A DNA stretch of 64,000 nucleotides from an uncultured Gammaproteobacteria bacterium (GCA_963759005.1 CAVWXQ010000005.1:14546-78545); one strand, 5' to 3'; positions 17,165-47,927 are shown, counted from the first letter of the stretch. Numbers and translations are program-made. Notes: generated by a model from the letters alone, not told the origin.

Positions 17165-17449
17165 TTAACAGGAAACTGCGATATTTTTACTGCTGTTTTT
17201 TTGTGAACAAATAATCAACAAAACCTGTCCAATTGCTTGCAAGCCTGCTGCTAGCTGATCAGAATTAATGTGAGAATTTTTTACTATCGAATCCACATCA
17301 ACTTCCCCTGGAAACTGATAACTATGCTCATATAATAAACAGTAGATGGTCTGAAAAACGCCTGTTTTTTGAACAGCGGCTAAAATAGCTGTTACGGCTT
17401 CAGTTAAAAATCGACTGGCCTGATCGTTAGAAAATTCAACAGAAATCAA
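17165..17449 (-). CDS. Hypothetical protein
   Basis: ORF only. Confidence 0.25.
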   Translation of the reverse strand: MISVEFSNDQASRFLTEAVTAILAAVQKTGVFQTIYCLLYEHSYQFPGEVDVDSIVKNSHINSDQLAAGLQAIGQVLLIICSQKNSSKNIAVSC

Positions 17450-17566
17450 GCTTTTCGTAAAAGCCGTGTTAAATTCATCAAAAACTCTCTTTTAAAAGTT
17501 CCATATAGACCTCATGTATCAATTAAAATTAATAATCTGTTTGACGTAACTATAAAAAAATCACTT

Positions 17567-17837
17567 CTAGTACTCTATCAACCTGATAATGACGGATGCA
17601 GTTGGTCTGTCAGCGTTCAGGGCAAGGCACGCCTCGCAGCAAATGGCCTTAGTCCTTTGCAAGAGGTGTAACGATGCCATGGACGTTGACAGACCAACCC
17701 TTCGGGCATCGCTGTGGTGTCTCGCCACTGCGTTACAGCACTTGACAAGGACTATGGCCATTGCCTACGTACTGTGCCTTGTTGCGAAACACCACAACGA
17801 TGCTGCATCCGTCATTATCAGGTTGATAGAGTACTAG
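17567..17837. mobile_element. MITE family 1 copy 1 (approx. 265-bp nested palindrome, ends TACTCTATCAACCTGATAATGACGG.TGCAG, CTAG on both sides)
   Basis: There are three near-identical copies in the window (here, 25728 and 47657). A 35-bp TIR encloses a second internal inverted repeat. The ORFs inside are mirror artefacts. Confidence 0.8.
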
Positions 17838-17948
17838 TGAGTAACGACATAAAGCCACATTTAACATTTGTTAACGTTGTTACAGCATTATTGTTAAACT
17901 AGCTATGGCAATATTCATAAGAAATGAAGCTATTGAGAGGACTGTTTT

Positions 17949-18677
17949 GTGCGTATTGGATTACTGGAAGACGACTTAAGTCAAATTGAATTAATTAGCC
18001 TGTGGGCGAGTGAAGCTGGTGACCATCTACAGTCTTATACCTCTGGTAAAAGTTTTCGTGAAGCGATGAACACAGAAAACTTTGACCTGCTGGTACTCGA
18101 CTGGCATCTTCCCGATACTACCGGTATCGAGGAGCTCGACTGGTTACGCGGTGAGAAAGCCTCCAGCACACCGGTCATTTTTATTACCAGTCGGGACAGC
18201 GAACAAAGCGTAGTCGAAGCGCTGGATCACGGCGCAGATGATTATATGGTCAAACCGGTGACAAAAGGCGTCACCCTGGCCCGTATCAAAGCACTTCAGC
18301 GTCGTAATAAGATCGGCGACACGCTGGCGACTTCAGGCAGTGGGATGGCTAATGAGACTGACCGGGTGTCCGCCATTCTTGATTTCGATCCTTATCTAAT
18401 TAATACCGCGGAGCACAGTATCTCGGTCAATGGCGAAGTGATAAAACTCACCTATAAAGAATTTGAACTGGCGGCTTACCTGTTTCGTCATGCCGGTTGC
18501 CTGGTTTCACGTGATCATCTGCTCGAGTTCATCTGGGGCACACGGGCAGATCTCAATACCCGTACGGTGGACACCCATATCAGTCGGATTCGCTCAAAAC
18601 TGGGGATTAACCCGGCCGTTGGCTGGCAGCTCAGTAGCATCTATCAACGCGGTTATCGTTTATCCAGGGTATCTTAG
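17949..18677 (+). CDS. OmpR/PhoB-family response regulator (GTG start)
   Basis: Receiver domain (LVLDWHLPD..., K at MVKP) and winged-helix C-terminus (LTYKEFELAAYL...TVDTHISRIRSKL). Confidence 0.75.
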   Translation: MRIGLLEDDLSQIELISLWASEAGDHLQSYTSGKSFREAMNTENFDLLVLDWHLPDTTGIEELDWLRGEKASSTPVIFITSRDSEQSVVEALDHGADDYMVKPVTKGVTLARIKALQRRNKIGDTLATSGSGMANETDRVSAILDFDPYLINTAEHSISVNGEVIKLTYKEFELAAYLFRHAGCLVSRDHLLEFIWGTRADLNTRTVDTHISRIRSKLGINPAVGWQLSSIYQRGYRLSRVS

Positions 18678-18689
18678 GACTAAATAAAA

Positions 18690-19790
18690 ATGTTTCGATT
18701 TATCACCGCACTACTATTAATGCTAACCATCAGTCTGCCCGGCCTGGTTACCGCCGAGGAAGAATACTGGGAATACACCTTCCGACCCGGTGACAGCATC
18801 TGGAAGATCGCTGAAAAATATACAACGTCGGTAAATAACTGGGCAGAAATCCAGGAGATAAACAAAATACTCGAAGGACCGGATCGAAGAATTCGTCCGG
18901 GAACACGCATCGTGATACCAGTTTCGATGTTGAAATTACAACCTACCCCGGCACTGGTCATCGCGGTAAGCGGTGATGTCAGTCTGCTACGCGCTAATGG
19001 TGAAAAGTCAGAAGTAATAATCGGCACAAAATTATACAGTGGTGACCGGGTGGTTACTGCAGACAGGGAAAACCTGCGCATGCAGTTTGCCGATAAATCC
19101 GAGTTACAGGTGCTGCCCAATAGTGAGGTTGTACTCGACAAGCTCAGTCATCATGAAACCAGCGGCATGGTGGATACGCGTATACGGCTAAATTCCGGCA
19201 GGGTGAATACCTGGGTAGAGCAACAGAGACCGGATAGCCATTATGAGATTATCACCCCCGCGGCCATTACCGCTGTTAGGGGTACCGCGTTCAGGTTATC
19301 GACTGATGATGAGCAGATCAGTCGAACCGAGGTGACAGCAGGGATTGTCGGGGTATCCGCTGGGGGAGCTGAAAAACAGGTCAATGATGGTTACGGTATT
19401 GTCGCAGAAAAGGACAAACCGCTTCCTGAACCGGTGAAATTATTAGCCGCGCCCGAAGTCAGCGACAACCTGTCTGCAGACAACAGCGAACTTCACGTCT
19501 CATGGAATAAACTTGCAGGCGCTAAAGCTTATCGTTACCGGCTGGCAAGCGACCAGCAATTCAACCAGATCATCATCGATGAGTCGACAGAAAATAACTC
19601 AATCAAACTGACAGAGTTAGCTCCCGGCCAATATTACCTGCAGGTAAGGGGCATTGATCAGTTCAAACTGGAAGGTGTTGACGCAATCAATGACTATGAG
19701 GTCCAGCAAGCACCACCGCCTCCTGTGGTAGATGATTCCTACTGGAAAGTCATCATCACCACCGGCATAGTCGTGCTGTTACTGCTCTGA
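18690..19790 (+). CDS. Periplasmic LysM + FecR domain protein
   Basis: Signal peptide. LysM (YTFRPGDSIWKIAEKY...NWAEIQEIN). FecR-like (ITPAAITAVRGTAFRL). C-terminal TM. Confidence 0.65.
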   Translation: MFRFITALLLMLTISLPGLVTAEEEYWEYTFRPGDSIWKIAEKYTTSVNNWAEIQEINKILEGPDRRIRPGTRIVIPVSMLKLQPTPALVIAVSGDVSLLRANGEKSEVIIGTKLYSGDRVVTADRENLRMQFADKSELQVLPNSEVVLDKLSHHETSGMVDTRIRLNSGRVNTWVEQQRPDSHYEIITPAAITAVRGTAFRLSTDDEQISRTEVTAGIVGVSAGGAEKQVNDGYGIVAEKDKPLPEPVKLLAAPEVSDNLSADNSELHVSWNKLAGAKAYRYRLASDQQFNQIIIDESTENNSIKLTELAPGQYYLQVRGIDQFKLEGVDAINDYEVQQAPPPPVVDDSYWKVIITTGIVVLLLL

Positions 19791-19822: not shown

Positions 19823-22480
19823 GTGAATCTGATTGGAGCTAAAGGCAACGGTTCGGGTGTAATCGAACACTTTTTTCTGGTTGCCATACTGGCGTTTGTA
19901 GCCGGGATGTTCGTTTATAATAATGTGTTATGGCGCTGGGACAACCTGCTGTATGACGCCCAGTTGTCCTTCTGGACTCGAACGGTGTCCGATGACATCA
20001 TCATTATCGCCATCGATGATGAAAGCCTGAATGAACTGGGACGCTGGCCCTGGCCACGATCAACCCATGCACACCTGATTAATCAACTCGAACTCGAATC
20101 ACCCCGCGCTATCGGCCTGGATATAATATTCAACGAGTCCGATACAAACAATCCGCTGTCCGATGTCTTACTGGCGCGTGCTATGCGTGCCAGCGGCAAA
20201 GTCGTGTTGCCGGTGTTCATGTCTCAGCAAAGCAATAACTCCTATCCCATAGAAGCCCTGCCTTTACCCGAGTTTACCCAATATGCGGCTGCACTTGGAC
20301 ACGTGCATATCGATATTAGTGCCGATGGTATCGCGCGACGCGTATTTCTCAGAGAAGGTATCGGTGAGCCGCACTGGATGCATTACAGCCTGGCGTTATT
20401 GAGTCTTACCGGTGAGGGTGTCTTGCCTGAGCCAGATATAAAAATTGATGGTAAAACGAAACAGTATTCAGCCATGCAATGGTCCAGAGAATACCCGTTC
20501 CTGATACCCTATGCAGGGCCACCCGGACATTTTCAGCAGATAGGTTATTCACAGGTGCTGGCCGGGTTATACTCGAAAGACCTGTTTCGCGACAAGATTG
20601 TGCTGATAGGAACCACCGCTGAAGGTCTGGGTGATGCCCTGCCTACACCACTATCGGGTAATGGCGGCATTATGCCGGGGGTTGAGATCGTGGCCAATGT
20701 CGTTGATGCGATACGTAGTGATCTTCGCATTAGCGAGCTGGATACATCCTGGCTGATAGCCATAACTGCCCTGCTGGTGGCACTGCCCGTAATGATCTAC
20801 CCGTACCTGAACCCCGGCAGTACATTGCTGGTCCTGTTTAGCATCGTTCTCGGCACACTGGTGCTGGTCGCTTTGCTGTTATGGTTATTCGGCATATGGG
20901 TGCCGGTTTCCACTATATTGTTGTTTCAGTTTATCAGTTATCCGTTATGGAGCTGGCGCCGACTGGTACTGGCGATGCGCCACATTAATGCCGAGCTGAA
21001 TCAGCTTTCTGCCAGGCAGAAAGCATTGACTATGCACCGGGAGCGGAATATTGCTGATGAGATCAGTTTTATTTCATTGTTCATTCCGATCAAGGGCTGG
21101 GTGTTACAGGATGAAAATGGCCACAACCTTATGCAGCAAGGGTCGGTCCCCGTTTGCAATCTAAGCCAGTTAAAAGCGGATGGCTGGAGCGTAGATGGCT
21201 ACCGATACTGGGCGCAGACTCGCTATCACAACAAACCCTGCAGGCTGGGTTTGAGCATGGGTATGGATGCGGTGATTAGCGATGAAGAAAAACGCCTGTT
21301 AAATAGCCTGGTCCATACGCCACTGAGCGCTGAAACAGAACAGGGTGCCTACGTTGAAGATGTTCTACAGGCAAAAATCCAGCAGGTGCAGGCCGTGGGT
21401 AGTGAATATGAAGAACTCAGGCGTATTATTGATGACAGCCTGTCTGGTATGGCCGATGGTGTATTGATATGCAGTAGCCGAGGCCAGGTGATGCTGTCCA
21501 ATCGACGTGCAGGATGGTATCTGTATGGCGATGATAATGCCGATATCAACGCTGAGTCATTAATCCATATATTGGAGCATGTCCGGCTGAAAGATGGCGG
21601 TAGCTGGCACCCTCTGTTGCAACGTGTCATGTTCAGACAGGAGCGTGTGCTGGCCGATGCCCAGCATGAAGAGGGTCGAGACCTCATGGTCGAAATTAGT
21701 CCATTGCGAATTATCGGTGATGTGTTTGATGGTTTTGTGGTCAATTTTTCGGATATCAGCATGTTGAAGGCCAGTGAACGCAAGCGTACCGAAGTGCTGA
21801 ACTTCCTCTCTCACGATCTGCGCGCGCCCTTATCATCGATGCTTGCCATGATCGAACTGGCAAAAAATAAAAGCAGTGTCGATGAGGTGCGTTCCATGCT
21901 GGCAGACATGGAAAAGAACACCCATAAAACGTTACATCTTGCCGAACAGTTTTTGCAATTAGCACGCGCCAATACCAGCGAGAATATTATTTTTTACGAT
22001 ATAGATTTTAACAGCGTAGTACTGAATGCGATTGATCAGCTCTGGGCGCTATCAAATAAAATGCAGGTCAGCGTCACTCACCAGTTTGACGGTGATGAAT
22101 TATGGACCCACGCAGAACCTGACTTACTGGAACGGGCAATACTTAACCTGCTATCCAATGCAATAAAACATAGCCAAGAAGGTGCAGCTGTTAACGTCAC
22201 GGTGACACTGAATGAGAATGAGATCAGCTGTTGCGTTATTGATCAGGGTTCGGGTATTTCCATGCAAGAGCTGCCGCATTTATTTGAAATGTTCAGACGG
22301 ACACAGGGCTCTGGTGTTGAGCGTATACAAGGCATAGGACTCGGACTGGCTTTTGTGGATGCAGTCGCCAGGCGCCATTCAGGGCATGTCGATGTCGAGA
22401 GCAGACTGGGTGAAGGCTCGAGTTTCTGTTTAAAAATTCCACAAGTAAATCCCGTCGATCCAGTAGAGCTAATAGATTAA
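19823..22480 (+). CDS. Sensor histidine kinase with CHASE2 extracytoplasmic domain and PAS
   Basis: CHASE2 signature (IIIIAIDDESLNELGRWPWPRSTHAHLINQL...GLDIIF), TM bundle, H-box SHDLRAP, HATPase_c (LLSNAIKHS, GIGLGLAFV). Confidence 0.75.
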   Translation: MNLIGAKGNGSGVIEHFFLVAILAFVAGMFVYNNVLWRWDNLLYDAQLSFWTRTVSDDIIIIAIDDESLNELGRWPWPRSTHAHLINQLELESPRAIGLDIIFNESDTNNPLSDVLLARAMRASGKVVLPVFMSQQSNNSYPIEALPLPEFTQYAAALGHVHIDISADGIARRVFLREGIGEPHWMHYSLALLSLTGEGVLPEPDIKIDGKTKQYSAMQWSREYPFLIPYAGPPGHFQQIGYSQVLAGLYSKDLFRDKIVLIGTTAEGLGDALPTPLSGNGGIMPGVEIVANVVDAIRSDLRISELDTSWLIAITALLVALPVMIYPYLNPGSTLLVLFSIVLGTLVLVALLLWLFGIWVPVSTILLFQFISYPLWSWRRLVLAMRHINAELNQLSARQKALTMHRERNIADEISFISLFIPIKGWVLQDENGHNLMQQGSVPVCNLSQLKADGWSVDGYRYWAQTRYHNKPCRLGLSMGMDAVISDEEKRLLNSLVHTPLSAETEQGAYVEDVLQAKIQQVQAVGSEYEELRRIIDDSLSGMADGVLICSSRGQVMLSNRRAGWYLYGDDNADINAESLIHILEHVRLKDGGSWHPLLQRVMFRQERVLADAQHEEGRDLMVEISPLRIIGDVFDGFVVNFSDISMLKASERKRTEVLNFLSHDLRAPLSSMLAMIELAKNKSSVDEVRSMLADMEKNTHKTLHLAEQFLQLARANTSENIIFYDIDFNSVVLNAIDQLWALSNKMQVSVTHQFDGDELWTHAEPDLLERAILNLLSNAIKHSQEGAAVNVTVTLNENEISCCVIDQGSGISMQELPHLFEMFRRTQGSGVERIQGIGLGLAFVDAVARRHSGHVDVESRLGEGSSFCLKIPQVNPVDPVELID

Positions 22481-22650
22481 CCGAGACACATTTTCCTGGT
22501 GCACCATACGCACTGGAATGAAACACAAAAAGTTGATTCATGGTGTGTACGATACACCATGCAGCCAAACCCTGGCTATTCTCCTGCACTGCATACAGCT
22601 GCAATTCGTTATACCTGTCCTTAACAAAAGCGTTAACCGGTCTTATGCTC

Positions 22651-22670
22651 AATTGTAAGCAATTGTTAAC
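22651..22670. promoter_or_regulatory. Conserved palindromic operator AATTGTAAGCAATTGTTAAC upstream of cassette copy 1
   Basis: The same approx. 45-bp block (aattgtaagcaattgttaa.tc..catttt...gcattgc) recurs at 26368. A related perfect palindrome GTTAACAATTGTTAAC is at 27539. Confidence 0.45.
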
Positions 22671-22732
22671 TCTTCATTTTCAGCATTGCCTATTGTTACC
22701 AGCTTATTTATAGTGATCGCGAAATAGCATGA

Positions 22733-23110
22733 TTGATTAATTCATCTATTTCTAACGACCAGCTATTGGAGAATCAAATGGACTGTAGAAAAGAGTGTTT
22801 TGCAGAACACGGTGTTACTTTTGCAGAGAAACTGCAAGAAGTCGGATTCTCAGTGGATCAGGCCGGGCAGTTTTTGCCTGAAACAGAATCAGGCATTATG
22901 GCTGGCATGCAAAATACGGGTGTAGAAAATATGATGGCAACCCTGTTATCTGAAGAGCCTTCTCAGTTATCAAACTTAATTAAGGTAGAAGCTATCGCCA
23001 ATAAACTGGGGGTGAATCATTATCAGGTAACAACTGGTCATGAAGCAATCACTCCCCTCATGTGCAAAGCATTATCACAAAAAATAATGATCTTGCTGGT
23101 GCTTCTTTAG
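22733..23110 (+). CDS. Hypothetical protein, cassette gene A1 (probable start 22778, GGAGA SD)
   Basis: Paralogous to 26403..26870 (LSEEPSQLSNLIKVEAIANKLGV vs LSDNPSQLIKTINVHAMAKKLGI). Confidence 0.5.
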   Translation: MINSSISNDQLLENQMDCRKECFAEHGVTFAEKLQEVGFSVDQAGQFLPETESGIMAGMQNTGVENMMATLLSEEPSQLSNLIKVEAIANKLGVNHYQVTTGHEAITPLMCKALSQKIMILLVLL

Positions 23111-23198
23111 CCTGAGGTTCAACGGGTGAAATAACCAGTTCAGTTAAAAATTTTTGTTTAGTAAATAACTTTATATTAACAACACAGGAGAACATAAC

Positions 23199-23606
23199 AT
23201 GTCAAAAAATATTCAAAGTATAGAAGGTATCGGTCCGAAGTATGCGGAACTACTGCTACAGGAGTGTATTAAAACTACTGATAAGTTGCTGGAAGTCGGC
23301 TGCAGCAAATCTGGCCGAAAAGAACTGGCAGAAAAAATATCAATCAATGAAACCAGTATATTGAAGTGGGTCAACATGTGTGATCTGTTTCGCATAAATG
23401 GTGTTGCTGGACAGTTCGCAGAACTTCTTGAGGGTGCCGGCGTTGATACTGTAAAAGAACTTCGCAATCGTAATGCTGATAATCTTGCAGAGAAAATGGC
23501 TGAAGTAAACAAAGAGAAGCATTTATGTAAAGCCTCTCCCAGATCAAAAACTGTCAGCAAGTGGATAGAACAGGCAAAAACTTTAGAACCAATGGTTACG
23601 CATTAA
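23199..23606 (+). CDS. DUF4332-type helix-hairpin-helix protein, cassette gene B1
   Basis: IEGIGPKYAELL and GVAGQFAELLEGAGVDTVKELRNRNADNLAEK are two HhH-like repeats. It is about 70% identical to 26909..27316. Confidence 0.6.
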   Translation: MSKNIQSIEGIGPKYAELLLQECIKTTDKLLEVGCSKSGRKELAEKISINETSILKWVNMCDLFRINGVAGQFAELLEGAGVDTVKELRNRNADNLAEKMAEVNKEKHLCKASPRSKTVSKWIEQAKTLEPMVTH

Positions 23607-23775
23607 TTCATCATCACATTACCATACCCTGGGCAATTTCTTTCCGGCGGCATGACGGTTGTGCCTTTGGCTTCGGCAGCGAAGAAGCCGCTAAAGCCAT
23701 TACAGATAAGATGGCGTTATATTAATAATAATTAATCGCCCGGTCCTTGTTATTATTGAAGTCCGCTATTGCGGG

Positions 23776-23803
23776 CTTTTTTTATTATCCTAAGACGTTA
23801 TTT
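23776..23803 (+). terminator. Rho-independent terminator after B1
   Basis: GTCCGC-tatt-GCGGGC followed by T7. Confidence 0.5.
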
Positions 23804-23948
23804 AAAACTATGCACTTTTCTGAAAGCAATCCAGTTGTTTCGAATGGATTTGAGAACCCTGAGATAAGGTACGAACCAGAACAGAGTATTGATTCTGATA
23901 TTTTAATGGTAGTGGTGTTAAGCCGGCGCATCCATTCACCTGGCCTGA

Positions 23949-24422
23949 TTAATTCTGCTTGATAATTTCAACCAGAGGTATGAACTTGTCACCATTTTTA
24001 ACATGCAGCTCGCCATCAAGATAGACCAGGTTAGCCTGTTGCTCTGCGGTCAGCATTTTCCATTCTTTTAACGTACTTAAGTCAAAGTTTTCTATTTCAT
24101 ACTGGTGTTTTGTGGGTTTCGTTAAACCCGATAGTGATGTTATGTTATTACTTTTCTGCACGGTGATAATCGCATTGTTATAACCAGCCGCATGTACTTC
24201 CTTAAGTATATCAAGTGCCCTGTTTTTATTTTCATAGGGGCTAAGACGTGTTCGAATATAGCCGTTACTGGCTTTTTCAGTGTAAAGGTTACCGTGTACT
24301 TTTAACGACTCATAACGCTACAGCTGTGGCGATTTAGACGCCTCTATCTATACGGCATATTGCTCGGCCCAACACTTACCGGTGACCAGTGCTAATAAAA
24401 TTAATATTCTATACTTTTTCAT
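23949..24422 (-). pseudogene. SPOR-domain periplasmic protein with two in-frame TAG codons (24348-50 and 24318-20)
   Basis: From the ATG at 24422 the frame reads MKKYRILILLALVTGKCWAEQYAV*IEASKSPQL*RYESLKVHGNLYTEKASNGYIRTRLSPYENKNRALDILKEVHAAGYNNAIITVQ... The second half is a SPOR fold pattern. The same frame continues to the stop at 23949. Confidence 0.5.
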
Positions 24423-24600
24423 AGCATCATTCCTTTCTGATCTGTGGAGACTCTATTCAATCACAGTCATAAATGCTTAGATATAAGATGAATGGCATGT
24501 TTGTAACATTTAACATAGAGTTAACAATCTCGAGAATTTACGTGGTTACTATAATGTCATCTTAAACAATGTCATCTTAATCCTAAGTGAGGAAGTAAAA

Positions 24601-25731
24601 ATGAATAAAGTGATGTTAGTAACAGCAGTATCTTCAATCGTAGTGTTGTCAGGCTGTGCATCTACAGGTGAAACAGGCGCAAACATTCAGAAAGAATACG
24701 AAGCTGAACTTAATGCCCGTAACCAGCAAATTGAACAATTAAAACAGAAGCTGGATGAAAGCCAGAAAGTGGCAGCCTCATCCAGAAGTACACCTACAAG
24801 CGCATCTGCCAGCATGGAAACACAGCAAGCGACGAATACTAGTACAACTTTCAATAATAACCTGTTGCCACCAAATGCCAAGGCTGGTCAATGTTTTGCT
24901 CGCGTTTACACACCGCCCACCTACCGAACAGAAAGCGAAAGTGTACTTAAAGCTGATGGTTATGATGTGGTAACAATCATACCTGCTGTTTATGGTACTG
25001 AAAAACAAACGGTAATGACTGCAGAAGCAACGGAAGCTCTCGAAGTCATCCCGGCGGTTTATGGCTGGAAAGAAGAACAGGTATTAGTCAGTCCTGAAAT
25101 CACTGAATTACAACGTGTGCCAGCAAAATATGGCTTCGAAGAAGAAAAACTTCTAGTTAAACCTGCACACTCCATATGGAAAAAAGGCACCGGCCCTATC
25201 ACAAAAGTAAACCAGAGCACTGGTGAAATCATGTGCCTGGTTGAAGTACCGGCTGTTTATGAAACCGTTAAAAAACGAGTTCTACTAACACCTGAAACCA
25301 CCAAACTGGTTGTCGTTAAAGCGGCAGTTTACAAAACGGTCAAAACACGCGTTGTTGAGCAGCCTGCCAGAACGGTTAGCAAAGAAATCCCTGCAAAATA
25401 CGACACTGTAGAGGTGAAAAAGCTGCTTAAAGAGTCAACCACAACATCGGTTAGTGTTCCTCCTGTATATGAAACAGTGAAAACCACCATTAATGTCGCT
25501 GATGGCTTCCTTGAGTGGACACCGATTCTGTGCGAAACCAATGTTACTGGTGACATTATTCGTCAGCTTCAGCAATCATTGAATGATAAAAACTATAACG
25601 CTGGTCCAGTCGATGGTGTTTATGGTTGGCAGACTACTGCTGCAGTTCGCAAATACCAGAGAGATAATAAGATGCCTGGTGACGGTCAGTTGACGATTGC
25701 ACTGGTTGAATCTTTGAATCTTAAATACTAG
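24601..25731 (+). CDS. Lipoprotein with 7 tandem approx. 20-aa repeats (PAVYxTxKxxVL) and C-terminal peptidoglycan-binding (PG_binding_1-like) domain
   Basis: Lipobox VLSGC. Repeats PAVYGTEKQTV / PAVYGWKEEQV / PAKYGFEEEKL / PAVYETVKKRV / AAVYKTVKTRV / PAKYDTVEVKK / PPVYETVKTTI. C-terminal NYNAGPVDGVYGWQTTAAVRKYQ. The stop TAG lies in the CTAG target of the adjacent MITE. Confidence 0.65.
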   Translation: MNKVMLVTAVSSIVVLSGCASTGETGANIQKEYEAELNARNQQIEQLKQKLDESQKVAASSRSTPTSASASMETQQATNTSTTFNNNLLPPNAKAGQCFARVYTPPTYRTESESVLKADGYDVVTIIPAVYGTEKQTVMTAEATEALEVIPAVYGWKEEQVLVSPEITELQRVPAKYGFEEEKLLVKPAHSIWKKGTGPITKVNQSTGEIMCLVEVPAVYETVKKRVLLTPETTKLVVVKAAVYKTVKTRVVEQPARTVSKEIPAKYDTVEVKKLLKESTTTSVSVPPVYETVKTTINVADGFLEWTPILCETNVTGDIIRQLQQSLNDKNYNAGPVDGVYGWQTTAAVRKYQRDNKMPGDGQLTIALVESLNLKY

Positions 25732-26007
25732 TACTCTATCAGCCTGATAATGACGGATGCAGCATCGTTGTGGTGTTTCAGCAACAAGGCACAGTACGTA
25801 GGCAATGGCCATAGTCCTTGTCAAGTGCTGTAACGCAGTGGCGAGGACACCGACAGCGATGCCCTGAAGGGTATGGTCTGTCAACATCCATGGCACTGCG
25901 TTACACCTCTTGCAAAGGACTAAGGCCATTTGCTGCGAGGCGTGCCTTGCCGCTGAAACGCTGACAGACCAACTGCATCCGTCATTATCAGGTTGATAGA
26001 GTACTAG
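25728..26007. mobile_element. MITE family 1 copy 2 (inverted internal orientation), CTAG flanks
   Basis: The sequence is near-identical to the copies at 17567 and 47657. Confidence 0.8.
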
Positions 26008-26047
26008 GGGTCTTAAATAGTAACCAAACTACTAGTTTATGTAGTTA

Positions 26048-26080
26048 ATAAGGGCGGCTTTATGCCGCCCTTATTGTTGT
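26048..26080 (+). terminator. Hairpin TAAGGGCGGC-tttat-GCCGCCCTTA + U-rich tail; probable original terminator of the lipoprotein gene, now separated from it by the MITE
   Basis: 10-bp GC-rich stem followed by ttgttgtggttt. Confidence 0.45.
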
Positions 26081-26367
26081 GGTTTAAATCTAGTATACGG
26101 CTTTTCATCTACTATCTGCGAAAGGATTCCTTTGAAACACTCATTACCTGAATAAAGACGTCATGAAGGTATCAACATTTGTCCGGATATTTTCTCAAAG
26201 CGCGAGTTCATTTGTTTCAATTATAAGCCACTTGAGCTCCAGGAATAGCGACGCTTCGATTGGTAATATCCGCTATCGTATTCTTAAGAAAACAGAGAAC
26301 AGTGCTCGCCAGCAGAGTGTCACACCTTCGGCCATCGGTAAATACGTTACATCCTCTCGGTATAACG

Positions 26368-26386
26368 AATTGTAAGCAATTGTTAA
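26368..26386. promoter_or_regulatory. Second copy of the AATTGTAAGCAATTGTTAA operator, upstream of cassette copy 2
   Basis: See 22651. Confidence 0.45.
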
Positions 26387-26402
26387 ATCAACATTTCTTG
26401 CA

Positions 26403-26870
26403 TTGCTTAAGTCCATGTACTTTTCTATAGTACCTATCAACGAAGAAGCAAACATTACTGTTTTGTCACTAATGGGGATTTACGTGGATTTTATAAAAAT
26501 TTATTTTGATGAATACAGCAGTGCGTTTACCAGAAAGCTGGGGGATGCGGGAATCACTGGCGATCTGGCTACTCAGTTCTTGTCTGAAACCGCATCGGCT
26601 ATCATGTACACCATCATAAACACAAACCTGGAAAAAACAATAGAAATACTGTTATCAGATAATCCTTCACAGCTTATAAAAACAATTAATGTCCATGCAA
26701 TGGCAAAAAAACTGGGCATAAGTTCAGAACAGATATCATCTGGCCTCGAATCCATTGCACCTGTAGTTTCACTGGTGTTTTTACTTAAGAGTAACGAGAT
26801 AGTTGCTGCCACGGCTTCTTTAGCCTGGAAAACAACAGATGAATACATCGATTCAGTGGGTAATTTATAG
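26403..26870 (+). CDS. Hypothetical protein, cassette gene A2 (true start uncertain)
   Basis: Paralog of 22733..23110. Confidence 0.5.
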   Translation: MLKSMYFSIVPINEEANITVLSLMGIYVDFIKIYFDEYSSAFTRKLGDAGITGDLATQFLSETASAIMYTIINTNLEKTIEILLSDNPSQLIKTINVHAMAKKLGISSEQISSGLESIAPVVSLVFLLKSNEIVAATASLAWKTTDEYIDSVGNL

Positions 26871-26908
26871 ATAAATAATAATTATTTTAACTATATCGGA
26901 GAAAAAAA

Positions 26909-27316
26909 ATGTCAAGAAGTCTTCAAAATGTAAAAGGTATCGGACCGAAGAATGCAGGACTATTAAACCAGCAAGGGATCTATACCACTAGCAAACTGCT
27001 GGAAGTTGGTCGCAACCGTTCTGGCAGAAAAGAAATAGCGGACAAAACATCTATCAGTGAATCCATAATACTGAAATGGGTCAACCTGTGCGACCTGTTT
27101 CGGATAAATGGCATTGCCGGACAGTTCGCAGAACTGCTTGAATGTGCAGGCGTAGATACCGTAAAGGAACTTCGGAATCGAAATGCAGAAAATCTTGCAG
27201 AAAAAATAAAAGAAGTAAATGAGCAGAAACACCTGTGTAAAGTAACACCTAGTGCAAGCAATATATCAGACTGGATCGAACAGGCAAAAACAATGGAACC
27301 CATGGTTACGTATTAG
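26909..27316 (+). CDS. DUF4332-type HhH protein, cassette gene B2
   Basis: Paralog of 23199..23606. Confidence 0.6.
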   Translation: MSRSLQNVKGIGPKNAGLLNQQGIYTTSKLLEVGRNRSGRKEIADKTSISESIILKWVNLCDLFRINGIAGQFAELLECAGVDTVKELRNRNAENLAEKIKEVNEQKHLCKVTPSASNISDWIEQAKTMEPMVTY

Positions 27317-27433
27317 AATAGACATGTGCATGACAACGAAATGTCTTATGCTGCAACTGGTATGTTCCTTAGATGTGGAATAACTGGACTACTATACCTA
27401 TAAAAATAATCGTCTGGTGAATGTGAACCTTTA

Positions 27434-27457
27434 AGCCCGTTGTTACGGGCTTTTTTA
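27434..27457 (+). terminator. Rho-independent terminator (AGCCCGT-tgtt-ACGGGCT + T6)
   Basis: Clean stem-loop plus T-run. Confidence 0.65.
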
Positions 27458-27538
27458 TCGTTTTTTTACTATGTATTAGCGTAGACGAAAGATGCAAAGA
27501 AAAACCTGCTCCCATCTTTAACTCCTAAGAAAACTACA

Positions 27539-27554
27539 GTTAACAATTGTTAAC
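27539..27554. promoter_or_regulatory. Perfect 16-bp palindrome GTTAACAATTGTTAAC
   Basis: It shares the CAATTGTTAA core with the operators at 22651 and 26368. Confidence 0.35.
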
Positions 27555-27740
27555 AGTTGCGTTATATAAATTAACAGATTGTTCCCGTAAAATTTAAATA
27601 TCAAATTCATTGTAAATATCGGGTAGAAATTCATGCTCAAACTAAAAACCGGAAGTTTTTTACTGCAATGTTCGCAGCGTTACAGAGACGTGTAACTGAT
27701 ATAAATAACAATCTTCTACACAAAAAGAAAGGTGCAATAG

Positions 27741-28132: not shown

Positions 28133-28495
28133 TTAATTATTTTCAATTCCTACTTGAAATAGTGTTTCCATATCAGGCCTTAGGCTGCAATTGCCAGTAC
28201 CCAGGAAAGATACACTTTTACCTGTTGCATAAGCTGTAAGTAGCAGGCTTAAAATCGCTTTACCCTGTTGAGTATCCGTATTAACAGCCCAATAACCAGA
28301 AGTTGCGCAATCAGGTTTAACATTGTAACTTCCGGTTATGTTTACATGCGTAGGGTTTTGATTTGGTGCCGCATAATCTCTACCAGATACAAACAGCTTT
28401 TGAATCGTGCCTAGCTGGTTTCCAGCGAACGAAAAACTACTAGAGAGCAAGAGAAAAGATATTATTATTGTTTTCATGTCATTAATCCGGGTCAA
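28133..28495 (-). CDS. Small secreted two-cysteine protein (TTG start at 28495, or ATG at 28477)
   Basis: Signal peptide MKTIIISFLLLSSSFSFA. The mature protein is about 95 aa with two Cys. Confidence 0.45.
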   Translation of the reverse strand: MTRINDMKTIIISFLLLSSSFSFAGNQLGTIQKLFVSGRDYAAPNQNPTHVNITGSYNVKPDCATSGYWAVNTDTQQGKAILSLLLTAYATGKSVSFLGTGNCSLRPDMETLFQVGIENN

Positions 28496-47656: not shown

Positions 47657-47927
47657 CTTGTACTCTATCAACCTGATAATGACGGGTGCAGTTGGTCTGT
47701 CAACGTTCAGGGTAAGGCACGCCTCGCAGCAAATGGCCTTAGTCCTTTGCAAGAGGTGTAACGATGCCATGGACGTTGACAGACCAACCCTTCGGGCATC
47801 GCTGTGGTGTCTCGCCACTGCGTTACAGCACTTGACAAGGACTATGGCCATTGCCTGCGTACTGTGCCTTGTTGCGAAACACCACAGCGATGCTGCACCC
47901 GTCATTATCAGGATGATAGAGTACTAG
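47657..47927. mobile_element. MITE family 1 copy 3 inserted in-phase (267 bp including the CTAG duplication) in the exonuclease gene
   Basis: Flanks gcta-CTtG[...]CTAG-atta. The ancestral gctaCTAGatta encodes ...YNLVAH.... The element carries a TAA in the gene frame at 47823-25 on the minus strand. Confidence 0.8.

Follow-up and report, generated by a model that had tools for sequence, protein, structure and literature searches.

The 64,000-nucleotide stretch of DNA from an uncultured Gammaproteobacteria bacterium that we analysed (GCA_963759005.1, CAVWXQ010000005.1:14546-78545; henceforth 'the window') contains two copies of a cassette in which a gene for a small protein, A, is followed on the same strand by a gene for a DUF4332-family protein, B. 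Each copy (A1/B1 and A2/B2) is preceded by the same short tandem repeat, henceforth 'the box'. Our comparisons make it reasonably probable that the cassettes are two anciently diverged A-B operons of one small regulon and that the box is the site of the response regulator (RR) of the adjacent two-component system, whose sensor is a CHASE2 histidine kinase. An initial annotation of the window had already placed both copies under one regulator, which remains the best reading. The features concerned, all on the + strand, are as follows:

17861..17875, +: single box-like unit TTAACATTTGTTAAC, putative autoregulatory site, 74 nt 5' of the RR start codon
17949..18677, +: OmpR/PhoB-family RR, receiver plus winged helix (Pfam Response_reg, Trans_reg_C), proposed binder of the box
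18690..19790, +: LysM and FecR protein (Pfam LysM, FecR), middle gene of the two-component operon
19823..22480, +: CHASE2 sensor histidine kinase (Pfam CHASE2, HisKA, HATPase_c)
22650..22669, +: box 1, CAATTGTAAG CAATTGTTAA, tandem 10-bp direct repeat with core TTGTAAG-N3-TTGTTAA
22686..22714, +: predicted promoter 1 (promoter scan), -35 TTGCCT at 22686-22691, 17-nt spacer, -10 TATAGT at 22709-22714
22778..23110, +: A1, clade I of the A family, divergent DUF937-like, C-terminally truncated
23199..23606, +: B1, DUF4332, 135 amino acids, intact (Pfam, 137.6 bits)
26367..26386, +: box 2, GAATTGTAAG CAATTGTTAA
26403..26431, +: predicted promoter 2 (read from the sequence, aligned to promoter 1), -35 TTGCTT at 26403-26408, 17-nt spacer, -10 TATAGT at 26426-26431
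26484..26870, +: A2, clade II, 128 amino acids, intact, GTG start (in-frame ATG alternative at 26472)
26909..27316, +: B2, DUF4332, 135 amino acids, intact

A tandem repeat upstream of two gene pairs

The 19-mer AATTGTAAGCAATTGTTAA occurs exactly at 22651-22669 and at 26368-26386. When up to three mismatches were allowed, the window yielded three matches against 0.08 expected, a number reached by none of 100 shuffled sequences; the third match is a palindromic site at 27540. The two exact copies lie within a conserved block (22650-22714 and 26367-26431) in which 46 of 65 positions (71%) are identical, with identity falling to random level in the ungapped flanks (17/65 upstream, 22/63 downstream). 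The initial annotation had recognised such a block before both copies and was right in this; its extent, given there as 45 bp, is in fact 65 bp. The order within the block is box, 16 nt, TTGCCT or TTGCTT, 17 nt and TATAGT, that is, a predicted promoter of the sigma-70 type (TTGCYT, 17 nt, TATAGT) plus an upstream element. A sigma-54 or ECF-type promoter was considered and rejected, as the conserved hexamers and their 17-nt spacing fit sigma-70.

In both copies the box reads TTGTAAG-CAA-TTGTTAA, a repeat with a 10-bp period. Counted from a predicted start near 22721 (~7 nt past the -10 hexamer) it occupies about -71 to -52, and its 3' end is 16 nt from the -35 hexamer, clear of both core promoter and start. 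Its position upstream of -35 is that of a putative activator site, not of an operator lying over the core promoter. Resemblances to sites of IHF, of the LacI family and of the GntR/PdhR type were tried and dropped because they misfit at conserved positions, and a riboswitch or leader reading was dropped because no RNA family reached its Rfam gathering threshold anywhere in the window. The TTG start codons initially proposed for A1 and A2 (22733 and 26403) could not be upheld, as they lie within or 5' of the promoter. The most likely start of A1 is the ATG at 22778, which is preceded by a GGAGA Shine-Dalgarno sequence, and that of A2 the GTG at 26484.

The third match belongs to an orphan box, which contains the palindrome GTTAACAATTGTTAAC (27539-27554) 223 bp past the B2 stop codon, where the initial annotation had noted a perfect palindrome about 220 bp after the second copy:

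27540..27559, -: orphan box, CAACTGTTAA CAATTGTTAA, containing GTTAACAATTGTTAAC

The minus strand gives its best reading, CAACTGTTAACAATTGTTAA, and it is kept in close relatives (L001, L004 and L086; L-numbers denote retrieved loci). An open reading frame (ORF) of 48 amino acids with a strong AGGAG Shine-Dalgarno sequence (27369-27515, minus strand) starts 24 nt past the orphan box, runs antisense through the B2 terminator and is called as a gene in L001-L004 too; there is no space for a promoter of the usual layout. A scan of the window for TTGTWAA-N3-TTGTWAA with up to two mismatches found six sites against 4.3 expected, which is no enrichment, and no further regulon members could be called from it. 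Upstream of the window gene for a peptidoglycan-binding lipoprotein there is a half-site at best.

Recurrence of the box and the adjacent two-component system

To follow the box into other genomes we used loci obtained in different ways. Six contexts (L001-L006) were retrieved through protein A, not through the motif. A DUF4332 gene lies directly 3' of A in all six, and the exact 19-mer lies upstream of A in five; one of the six, L005, has two slightly different boxes. L006, with an A protein of just 46% identity, retains the exact 20-mer and an unchanged distance of 49 nt from box to TATAGT. The same 49 nt separate the second CAATTG from TATAGT in both copies in the window and in the majority of the listed related promoters (L001, L006, L007, L015, L016, L021, L031, L050, L059 and L066 among them). 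In L005 (6387-6902) the interval between A and B holds a terminator-like hairpin, a second complete box with promoter, and a short ORF resembling the A N-terminus, and looks like a remnant of a further A copy.

An exact-pattern scan for CAATTGTWANCAATTGTWAA across 185,579 species genomes gave 72 loci. In ten of these, all from Gammaproteobacteria (Thiotrichaceae and unclassified metagenome-assembled genomes), the box is directly followed by A and/or B and the promoter is laid out in the same way. Most of the others belong to AT-rich Bacteroidota, Melainabacteria and the like; without that layout, they are regarded as chance matches in AT-rich genomes. These data bear on whether the identical 19-mer in the window is due to selection at all, since it might instead have arisen by recent copying of the promoter (through gene conversion or a mobile cassette) or by chance in AT-rich DNA; its identity despite only 42% identity of the A proteins, and the nearby miniature inverted-repeat transposable elements (MITEs), would fit such an origin. 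Against it stand the presence of the same 20-mer and spacing in species whose A proteins are 30-46% identical, the 0.08 matches expected in the window, the persistence of the repeat at 55-64% G+C and the absence of the box from the MITE sequence. We regard this explanation as extremely improbable and, given the conservation across genomes, as effectively refuted.

A further sample, independent of the motif, comprised 80 metagenome loci retrieved through B. A box with up to two mismatches precedes A-B in L079, L081-L083, L085, L086 and L093, and box and promoter spacing are also found upstream of A/B in the protein-retrieved locus L087. Distant loci of 54-64% G+C carry B without A, preceded by repeats of the type TTGTTAAC-GA-TTGTCAAC and a TAGACT -10 hexamer. 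With up to one mismatch, TTGTHAA-N4-TGTNAM matched 43 times in 426 kb, and 30 of these matches, in 25 of the 80 loci, fell within 800 bp upstream of B. The feature common to about 35 related loci is the tandem direct repeat TTGTWAA-N3-TTGTNAA with its 10-bp period. The CAATTG dyads are confined to the AT-rich clade and are lost in distant loci while the direct repeat stays: TTGTTAACGATTGTCAAC, one such distant site, keeps the repeat with its dyad symmetry gone, and TTGTTAAACATTGTGAAC (L107) is not palindromic. Because the dyads vanish as the 10-bp repeat persists, the conserved feature appears to be the direct repeat, and the CAATTG palindromes a clade-specific elaboration of it. The description of the box as a CAATTG-rich palindromic operator thus has to be given up, as the dyad is not conserved among orthologous sites and the box does not overlap the core promoter. 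Two outcomes that had been named as potentially damaging to the initial proposal were not encountered: A-B adjacency is kept in other genomes, and the motif, far from being a random product of an AT-rich genome, recurs before A/B in contigs of up to 64% G+C.

Nearly all gammaproteobacterial boxes precede B or A-B, the exceptions being a stand-alone A-family gene (A') in L007, a PG_binding_1 lipoprotein gene in L127/L143 and a regulator gene in L024. Such a distribution could indicate that the box is an autoregulatory operator bound by B, through its helix-hairpin-helix (HhH) motifs, or by A, with the two-component system a mere neighbour. B matches HHH_5, TfoX_C and Cdd1, and the folds that it weakly resembles are (HhH)2 modules from DNA-handling proteins. 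However, 55 of the 80 metagenome loci have no box and B is still 55-60% identical, so that a sequence-specific contact between B and the box would have been lost while B was conserved. Boxes also occur without A (L059, L088, L089 and L098), which shows that A is not required, and A has no significant match to a DNA-binding fold. HhH motifs touch the DNA backbone and lack sequence specificity, and a place upstream of -35 is unusual for an autorepressor. We consider autoregulation by A or B decidedly unlikely, and B a putative conserved target of the regulon, not its likely regulator. The initial annotation proposed DNA-binding assays with B and overlooked the likelier candidate, the adjacent OmpR-family RR.

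The genes for this RR, the LysM/FecR protein and the CHASE2 kinase form an operon on the same strand directly upstream of cassette 1. ORF clustering and BLAST across loci showed that the system recurs beside box-A-B or box-B. In 7 of the 14 genome loci, box-A-B directly follows the CHASE2 kinase gene, and the RR and LysM/FecR genes are found wherever the contig extends far enough. The system is directly upstream in the window and in L015, L016, L021, L050, L066, L079, L081, L087, L088 and L093, downstream of A-B in L008 and L080, and convergent with B in L110, L122 and L133; in L010 the RR gene is divergent from A. That the linkage survives these differing gene arrangements suggests a functional connection. 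In the subset of loci that span at least 3 kb and have readable DNA upstream, eight have both box and two-component system, nine the box alone, none the system alone and 33 neither (Fisher p = 4.5e-5, uncorrected for phylogeny).

The RR orthologues are 71-79% identical, and a second RR clade is ~45% identical. In an alignment oriented by a PhoB sequence, both clades have the identical recognition helix STRTVDTH(I/V)SR(I/L)R, in keeping with the conservation of the TTGTnAA core. For the RR, all NCBIfam equivalogs stay below their cut-offs, the best being PhoB at 132 bits against 296. Upstream of the RR gene a box-like unit is kept in three species (TTAACATTTGTTAAC in the window, TTTACAATTGTTAAC in L015 and TTTACATTTGTTAAG in L010), the window unit differing from TTAACAATTGTTAA by one mismatch.

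It is nevertheless conceivable that the box is bound by an unlinked factor, either another OmpR-family protein or another dimeric regulator, and that the adjacent system controls something else. In nine of the 17 loci with a box, the retrieved DNA shows no two-component system, and these include L005 and L006, with ~6 kb to either side. An OmpR-type RR of another kind, together with a HAMP-type kinase, is encoded 1.1 kb downstream of B in L006, and in L024 the box and its spacing precede an unrelated, atypical OmpR-family regulator gene. However, no regulator other than the RR of the CHASE2 system is recurrently found with box-A/B when the surrounding genes are rearranged, none of the box-negative loci carries that system, and recognition helix and box core are both kept across both RR clades. 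On balance we judge an unlinked factor to be unlikely, although deserving of some weight. The L024 gene (4516-5560, from a gammaproteobacterial metagenome-assembled genome) encodes a protein with a long N-terminal region and has the same box with similar -35/-10 spacing.

Several observations weigh against assigning the box to the adjacent RR. Where the system is missing near a box, as in the nine loci above, the link would have to act in trans, and shared ancestry inflates the co-occurrence statistic. Before the RR gene there is a single good unit, with unclear promoter spacing, some distant loci have the box reversed relative to B (L091, L110, L122 and L133), and the orphan box lacks both a promoter at the expected distance and a neighbouring remnant of A or B. 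Over the 5.4-kb region scanned, hexamer matches were no commoner than in shuffled sequence, and the starts are predicted from consensus only; what supports the putative promoters is their conservation across species, not the promoter scan.

With these points included, we still favour the RR of the adjacent system as the factor that binds the box. As head-to-tail dimers, RRs of the OmpR/PhoB family bind direct repeats that recur every 10-11 bp and usually lie 5' of, or overlap, the -35 hexamer, and from this knowledge of the family follows the simplest model, in which the RR would activate both A-B promoters and probably its own operon too. The CHASE2 histidine kinase, with the LysM/FecR protein probably forming part of its periplasmic input, would phosphorylate the RR (17949-18677). 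The phosphorylated RR would then bind, as a head-to-tail dimer, the repeat TTGTWAA-N3-TTGTTAA embedded in CAATTGTAAGCAATTGTTAA, its presumed docking site at about -71 to -52, and would activate both promoters, each of the sigma-70 type and transcribing one A-B operon, from an upstream, class-I-like position. The weaker single unit before the RR operon suggests autoregulation. Transcription starts, binding of the RR to the box, the sign of regulation and the signal sensed are all inferred.

The A and B proteins and the history of the cassettes

B1 and B2 match Pfam DUF4332 with 137.6 and 137.9 bits against a cut-off of 23.2, over profile positions 1-122 and 2-121 of 122. The AlphaFold (AF2) model of B1, with a predicted local distance difference test score (pLDDT) of 91, has two tandem (HhH)2-like modules, in agreement with the initial description of B as a DUF4332-type protein with two HhH repeats. 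Foldseek gave just weak matches to the B model (E at least 0.1), namely NusA AR1-AR2, domain 5 of Hel308/Pol-theta, the N-terminal domain of Rad51/RadA and BAF, and a search of the B sequence against the PDB found nothing significant. The modules could bind nucleic acid or a protein partner. JGI records of some B homologues read 'predicted flap endonuclease-1-like 5' DNA nuclease', yet B has no nuclease domain.

B, the likely core target, is found widely, in more than 2,930 clusters at E <=1e-10, and A is rare. The place of A before B is taken in distant loci by true DUF937 (L097, L139), by DUF2780 (L151, L153, L156) or by MscL (L094 and, by sequence, L113). MscS-like channel genes lie 3' of B in L005, L059 and L066, homologues of the PG_binding_1 lipoprotein adjoin B in L089, L090, L095, L118 and L131, and HerA-like ATPases are recurrent near B. 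These neighbours hint at envelope or osmotic stress. B is unusually well conserved between phyla: the loci L112-L150, where it is 55-60% identical, include Bacteroidales-like contigs in which it has the same 135-residue length, has no box and often adjoins a HerA-like (YjgR-type) ATPase. In L127 (position 3141, minus strand) and L143 (position 2678, minus strand) the PG_binding_1 lipoprotein gene diverges from B and is preceded by a second direct-repeat box (TTGTTAACGATTGTTAC, ~90 nt upstream) with a TATACT -10; in these lineages the lipoprotein may belong to the same regulon.

At Pfam thresholds A has no recognisable domain, as initially reported: neither A1 nor A2 reached any Pfam cut-off, DUF937 scoring 16.3 bits against 25.4 for A1 and not at all for A2. 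The family, however, has a remote relation that the single sequences hide, because 18 of 61 sampled members match Pfam DUF937 (best E 1e-8), and A therefore appears to be a divergent, distant branch of DUF937. The A-family profile, run against 1.84 billion proteins (E <=1e-3), found only 138 representatives at 50% identity, and a search of 5.8 billion sequences for homologues of A2 gave 30 clusters, all devoid of Pfam domains. The AF2 model of A2 (pLDDT 88) has eight helices; Foldseek searches of the A model against the PDB gave a best E of 2.7 and a template modelling (TM) score of about 0.2, with no significant match to the fold of a DNA-binding protein. By their sequences both A and B are predicted to be cytoplasmic. 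NCBIfam names neither, and no functional data for A or B were found in the portions of the literature on DUF4332, DUF937, COG3743 and the CHASE2 regulon that were covered.

The paralogy of the two cassettes, and the ~70% identity first estimated for B, were borne out (B1 versus B2, 70% over all 135 amino acids, E 3e-73), and the estimate of ~35% for A is revised to 42% (96 amino acids, E 4e-24). A neighbour-joining tree resolved the A family into three clades, each present in several genomes: clade I genes adjoin the kinase gene and precede B, clade II genes also precede B but at another place in the genome, and clade III genes stand alone. The window has one A gene of each clade, A1 in I, A2 in II and A' in III. 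Because A1 and A2 sit in different clades that each span several genomes, the split of the clades, and hence the duplication of the cassette, is old, as had been proposed.

Two of these three genes are damaged. Compared with L079 and L031, A1 carries a 1-nt and a 6-nt deletion near 23085 and a TGG to TGA change, lesions that remove the near-invariant C-terminal motif ASLAW. A' is apparently disrupted near its N-terminus, where one T must be dropped from a T5 run to restore a frame (MELLKESFDEFNTAF...) that matches the family N-terminus. A neighbouring SPOR-like gene has two nonsense codons, and the damage to all three may reflect local gene decay or be partly assembly error. The remaining features around the cassettes are:

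17165..17500, -: A', third A-family paralogue, clade III, stand-alone type (tblastn and ORF clustering)
17570..17834, unstranded: MITE copy between A' and the RR gene (exact terminal inverted repeats)
23758..23787, +: hairpin and T-run, terminator-like, 3' of B1
23949..24423, -: decayed SPOR-like gene, two in-frame stops
24601..25731, +: PG_binding_1 lipoprotein (Pfam)
25731..26004, unstranded: MITE copy
27433..27460, +: hairpin and T-run, terminator-like, 3' of B2

The decayed SPOR gene, peptidoglycan-binding lipoprotein and MITE that had been described between the two copies were all found, the SPOR match being borderline (the intact L005 homologue scores E 7e-4 and 20.3 bits against 21). 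The MITE is present in three copies (17570-17834, 25731-26004 and 47660-47924) of ~265-275 bp with exact 32-nt terminal inverted repeats; it is fully palindromic, so that the whole element forms one long predicted hairpin (-179 kcal/mol, z = -17). Being short, non-coding, bounded by terminal inverted repeats and present in several near-identical copies, it has the hallmarks of its class. The first copy separates A' from the promoter region of the RR gene. Downstream of cassette 2, 28133-28495 (minus strand) encodes a secreted-looking protein of 120 amino acids with no Pfam or NCBIfam match.

Comparison with described systems and significance

Boxes of OmpR/PhoB-family regulators include the PhoP box (TGTTTA-N5-TGTTTA), the CpxR box (GTAAA-N5-GTAAA), the pho box and the OmpR sites. 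Like these, the box consists of two tandem 7-bp half-sites one helical turn apart, upstream of a weak -35 hexamer, and as in such systems a winged-helix regulator with a probable (predicted) autoregulatory site is encoded adjacent. Three features that characterise OmpR/PhoB sites, a tandem repeat, a fixed position upstream of -35 and a co-occurring winged-helix regulator, were thus found. In contrast to the named boxes, the half-site is TTGTWAA with a 10-bp period and, in the AT-rich clade, two CAATTG dyads, and it is not known to match that of any named regulator.

The closest described arrangement is the 'BiofilmReg' operon of Burkholderia contaminans and other Burkholderiales, given in the relevant passages of PMC5192318 as RR-LysM/FecR-CHASE2 kinase with a DUF4136 protein as the fourth gene, and in which interruption of the RR led to loss of biofilm. 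The window system has the same gene order, the LysM/FecR gene central, and the same domains, a likeness of architecture and not of compared sequences; the genes alongside are DUF937-like and DUF4332 genes, not DUF4136. The passages on BiofilmReg in PMC5192318 mention no DNA target or regulon. Likewise, keyword searches of the literature turned up neither the box nor the regulon, nor a DNA target for the RR-LysM/FecR-CHASE2 class in the material they returned.

As for the proteins, B1 and B2 are full-length members of DUF4332 (PF14229). A resembles DUF937/YidB-like proteins (PF06078, PF20159) in being small, all-helical and, by prediction, cytoplasmic, but has the ASLAW motif instead of the glycine-rich C-terminus typical of DUF937. 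Overall, the regulatory logic is that of a conventional two-component system with a direct-repeat box, and the regulon is new and unnamed, with uncharacterised members. These results provide a testable cis element for the CHASE2/LysM-FecR system together with a short list of candidate targets, namely B, A, possibly the peptidoglycan-binding lipoprotein, and the system's own operon. They also tie DUF4332 to a defined signalling input and to DUF937/DUF2780 partners, which narrows the search for its role. One speculative role, which we think quite unlikely to be right as it stands, is that A and B are the cytoplasmic effector pair of an envelope- or peptidoglycan-sensing CHASE2 system, with B acting on the nucleoid or the transcription machinery during envelope or osmotic stress. 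This would explain the linkage of B to MscL, MscS-like channels, peptidoglycan-binding lipoproteins and SPOR proteins and, if true, would provide the first function for two large DUF families and the first defined regulon of a CHASE2 kinase.

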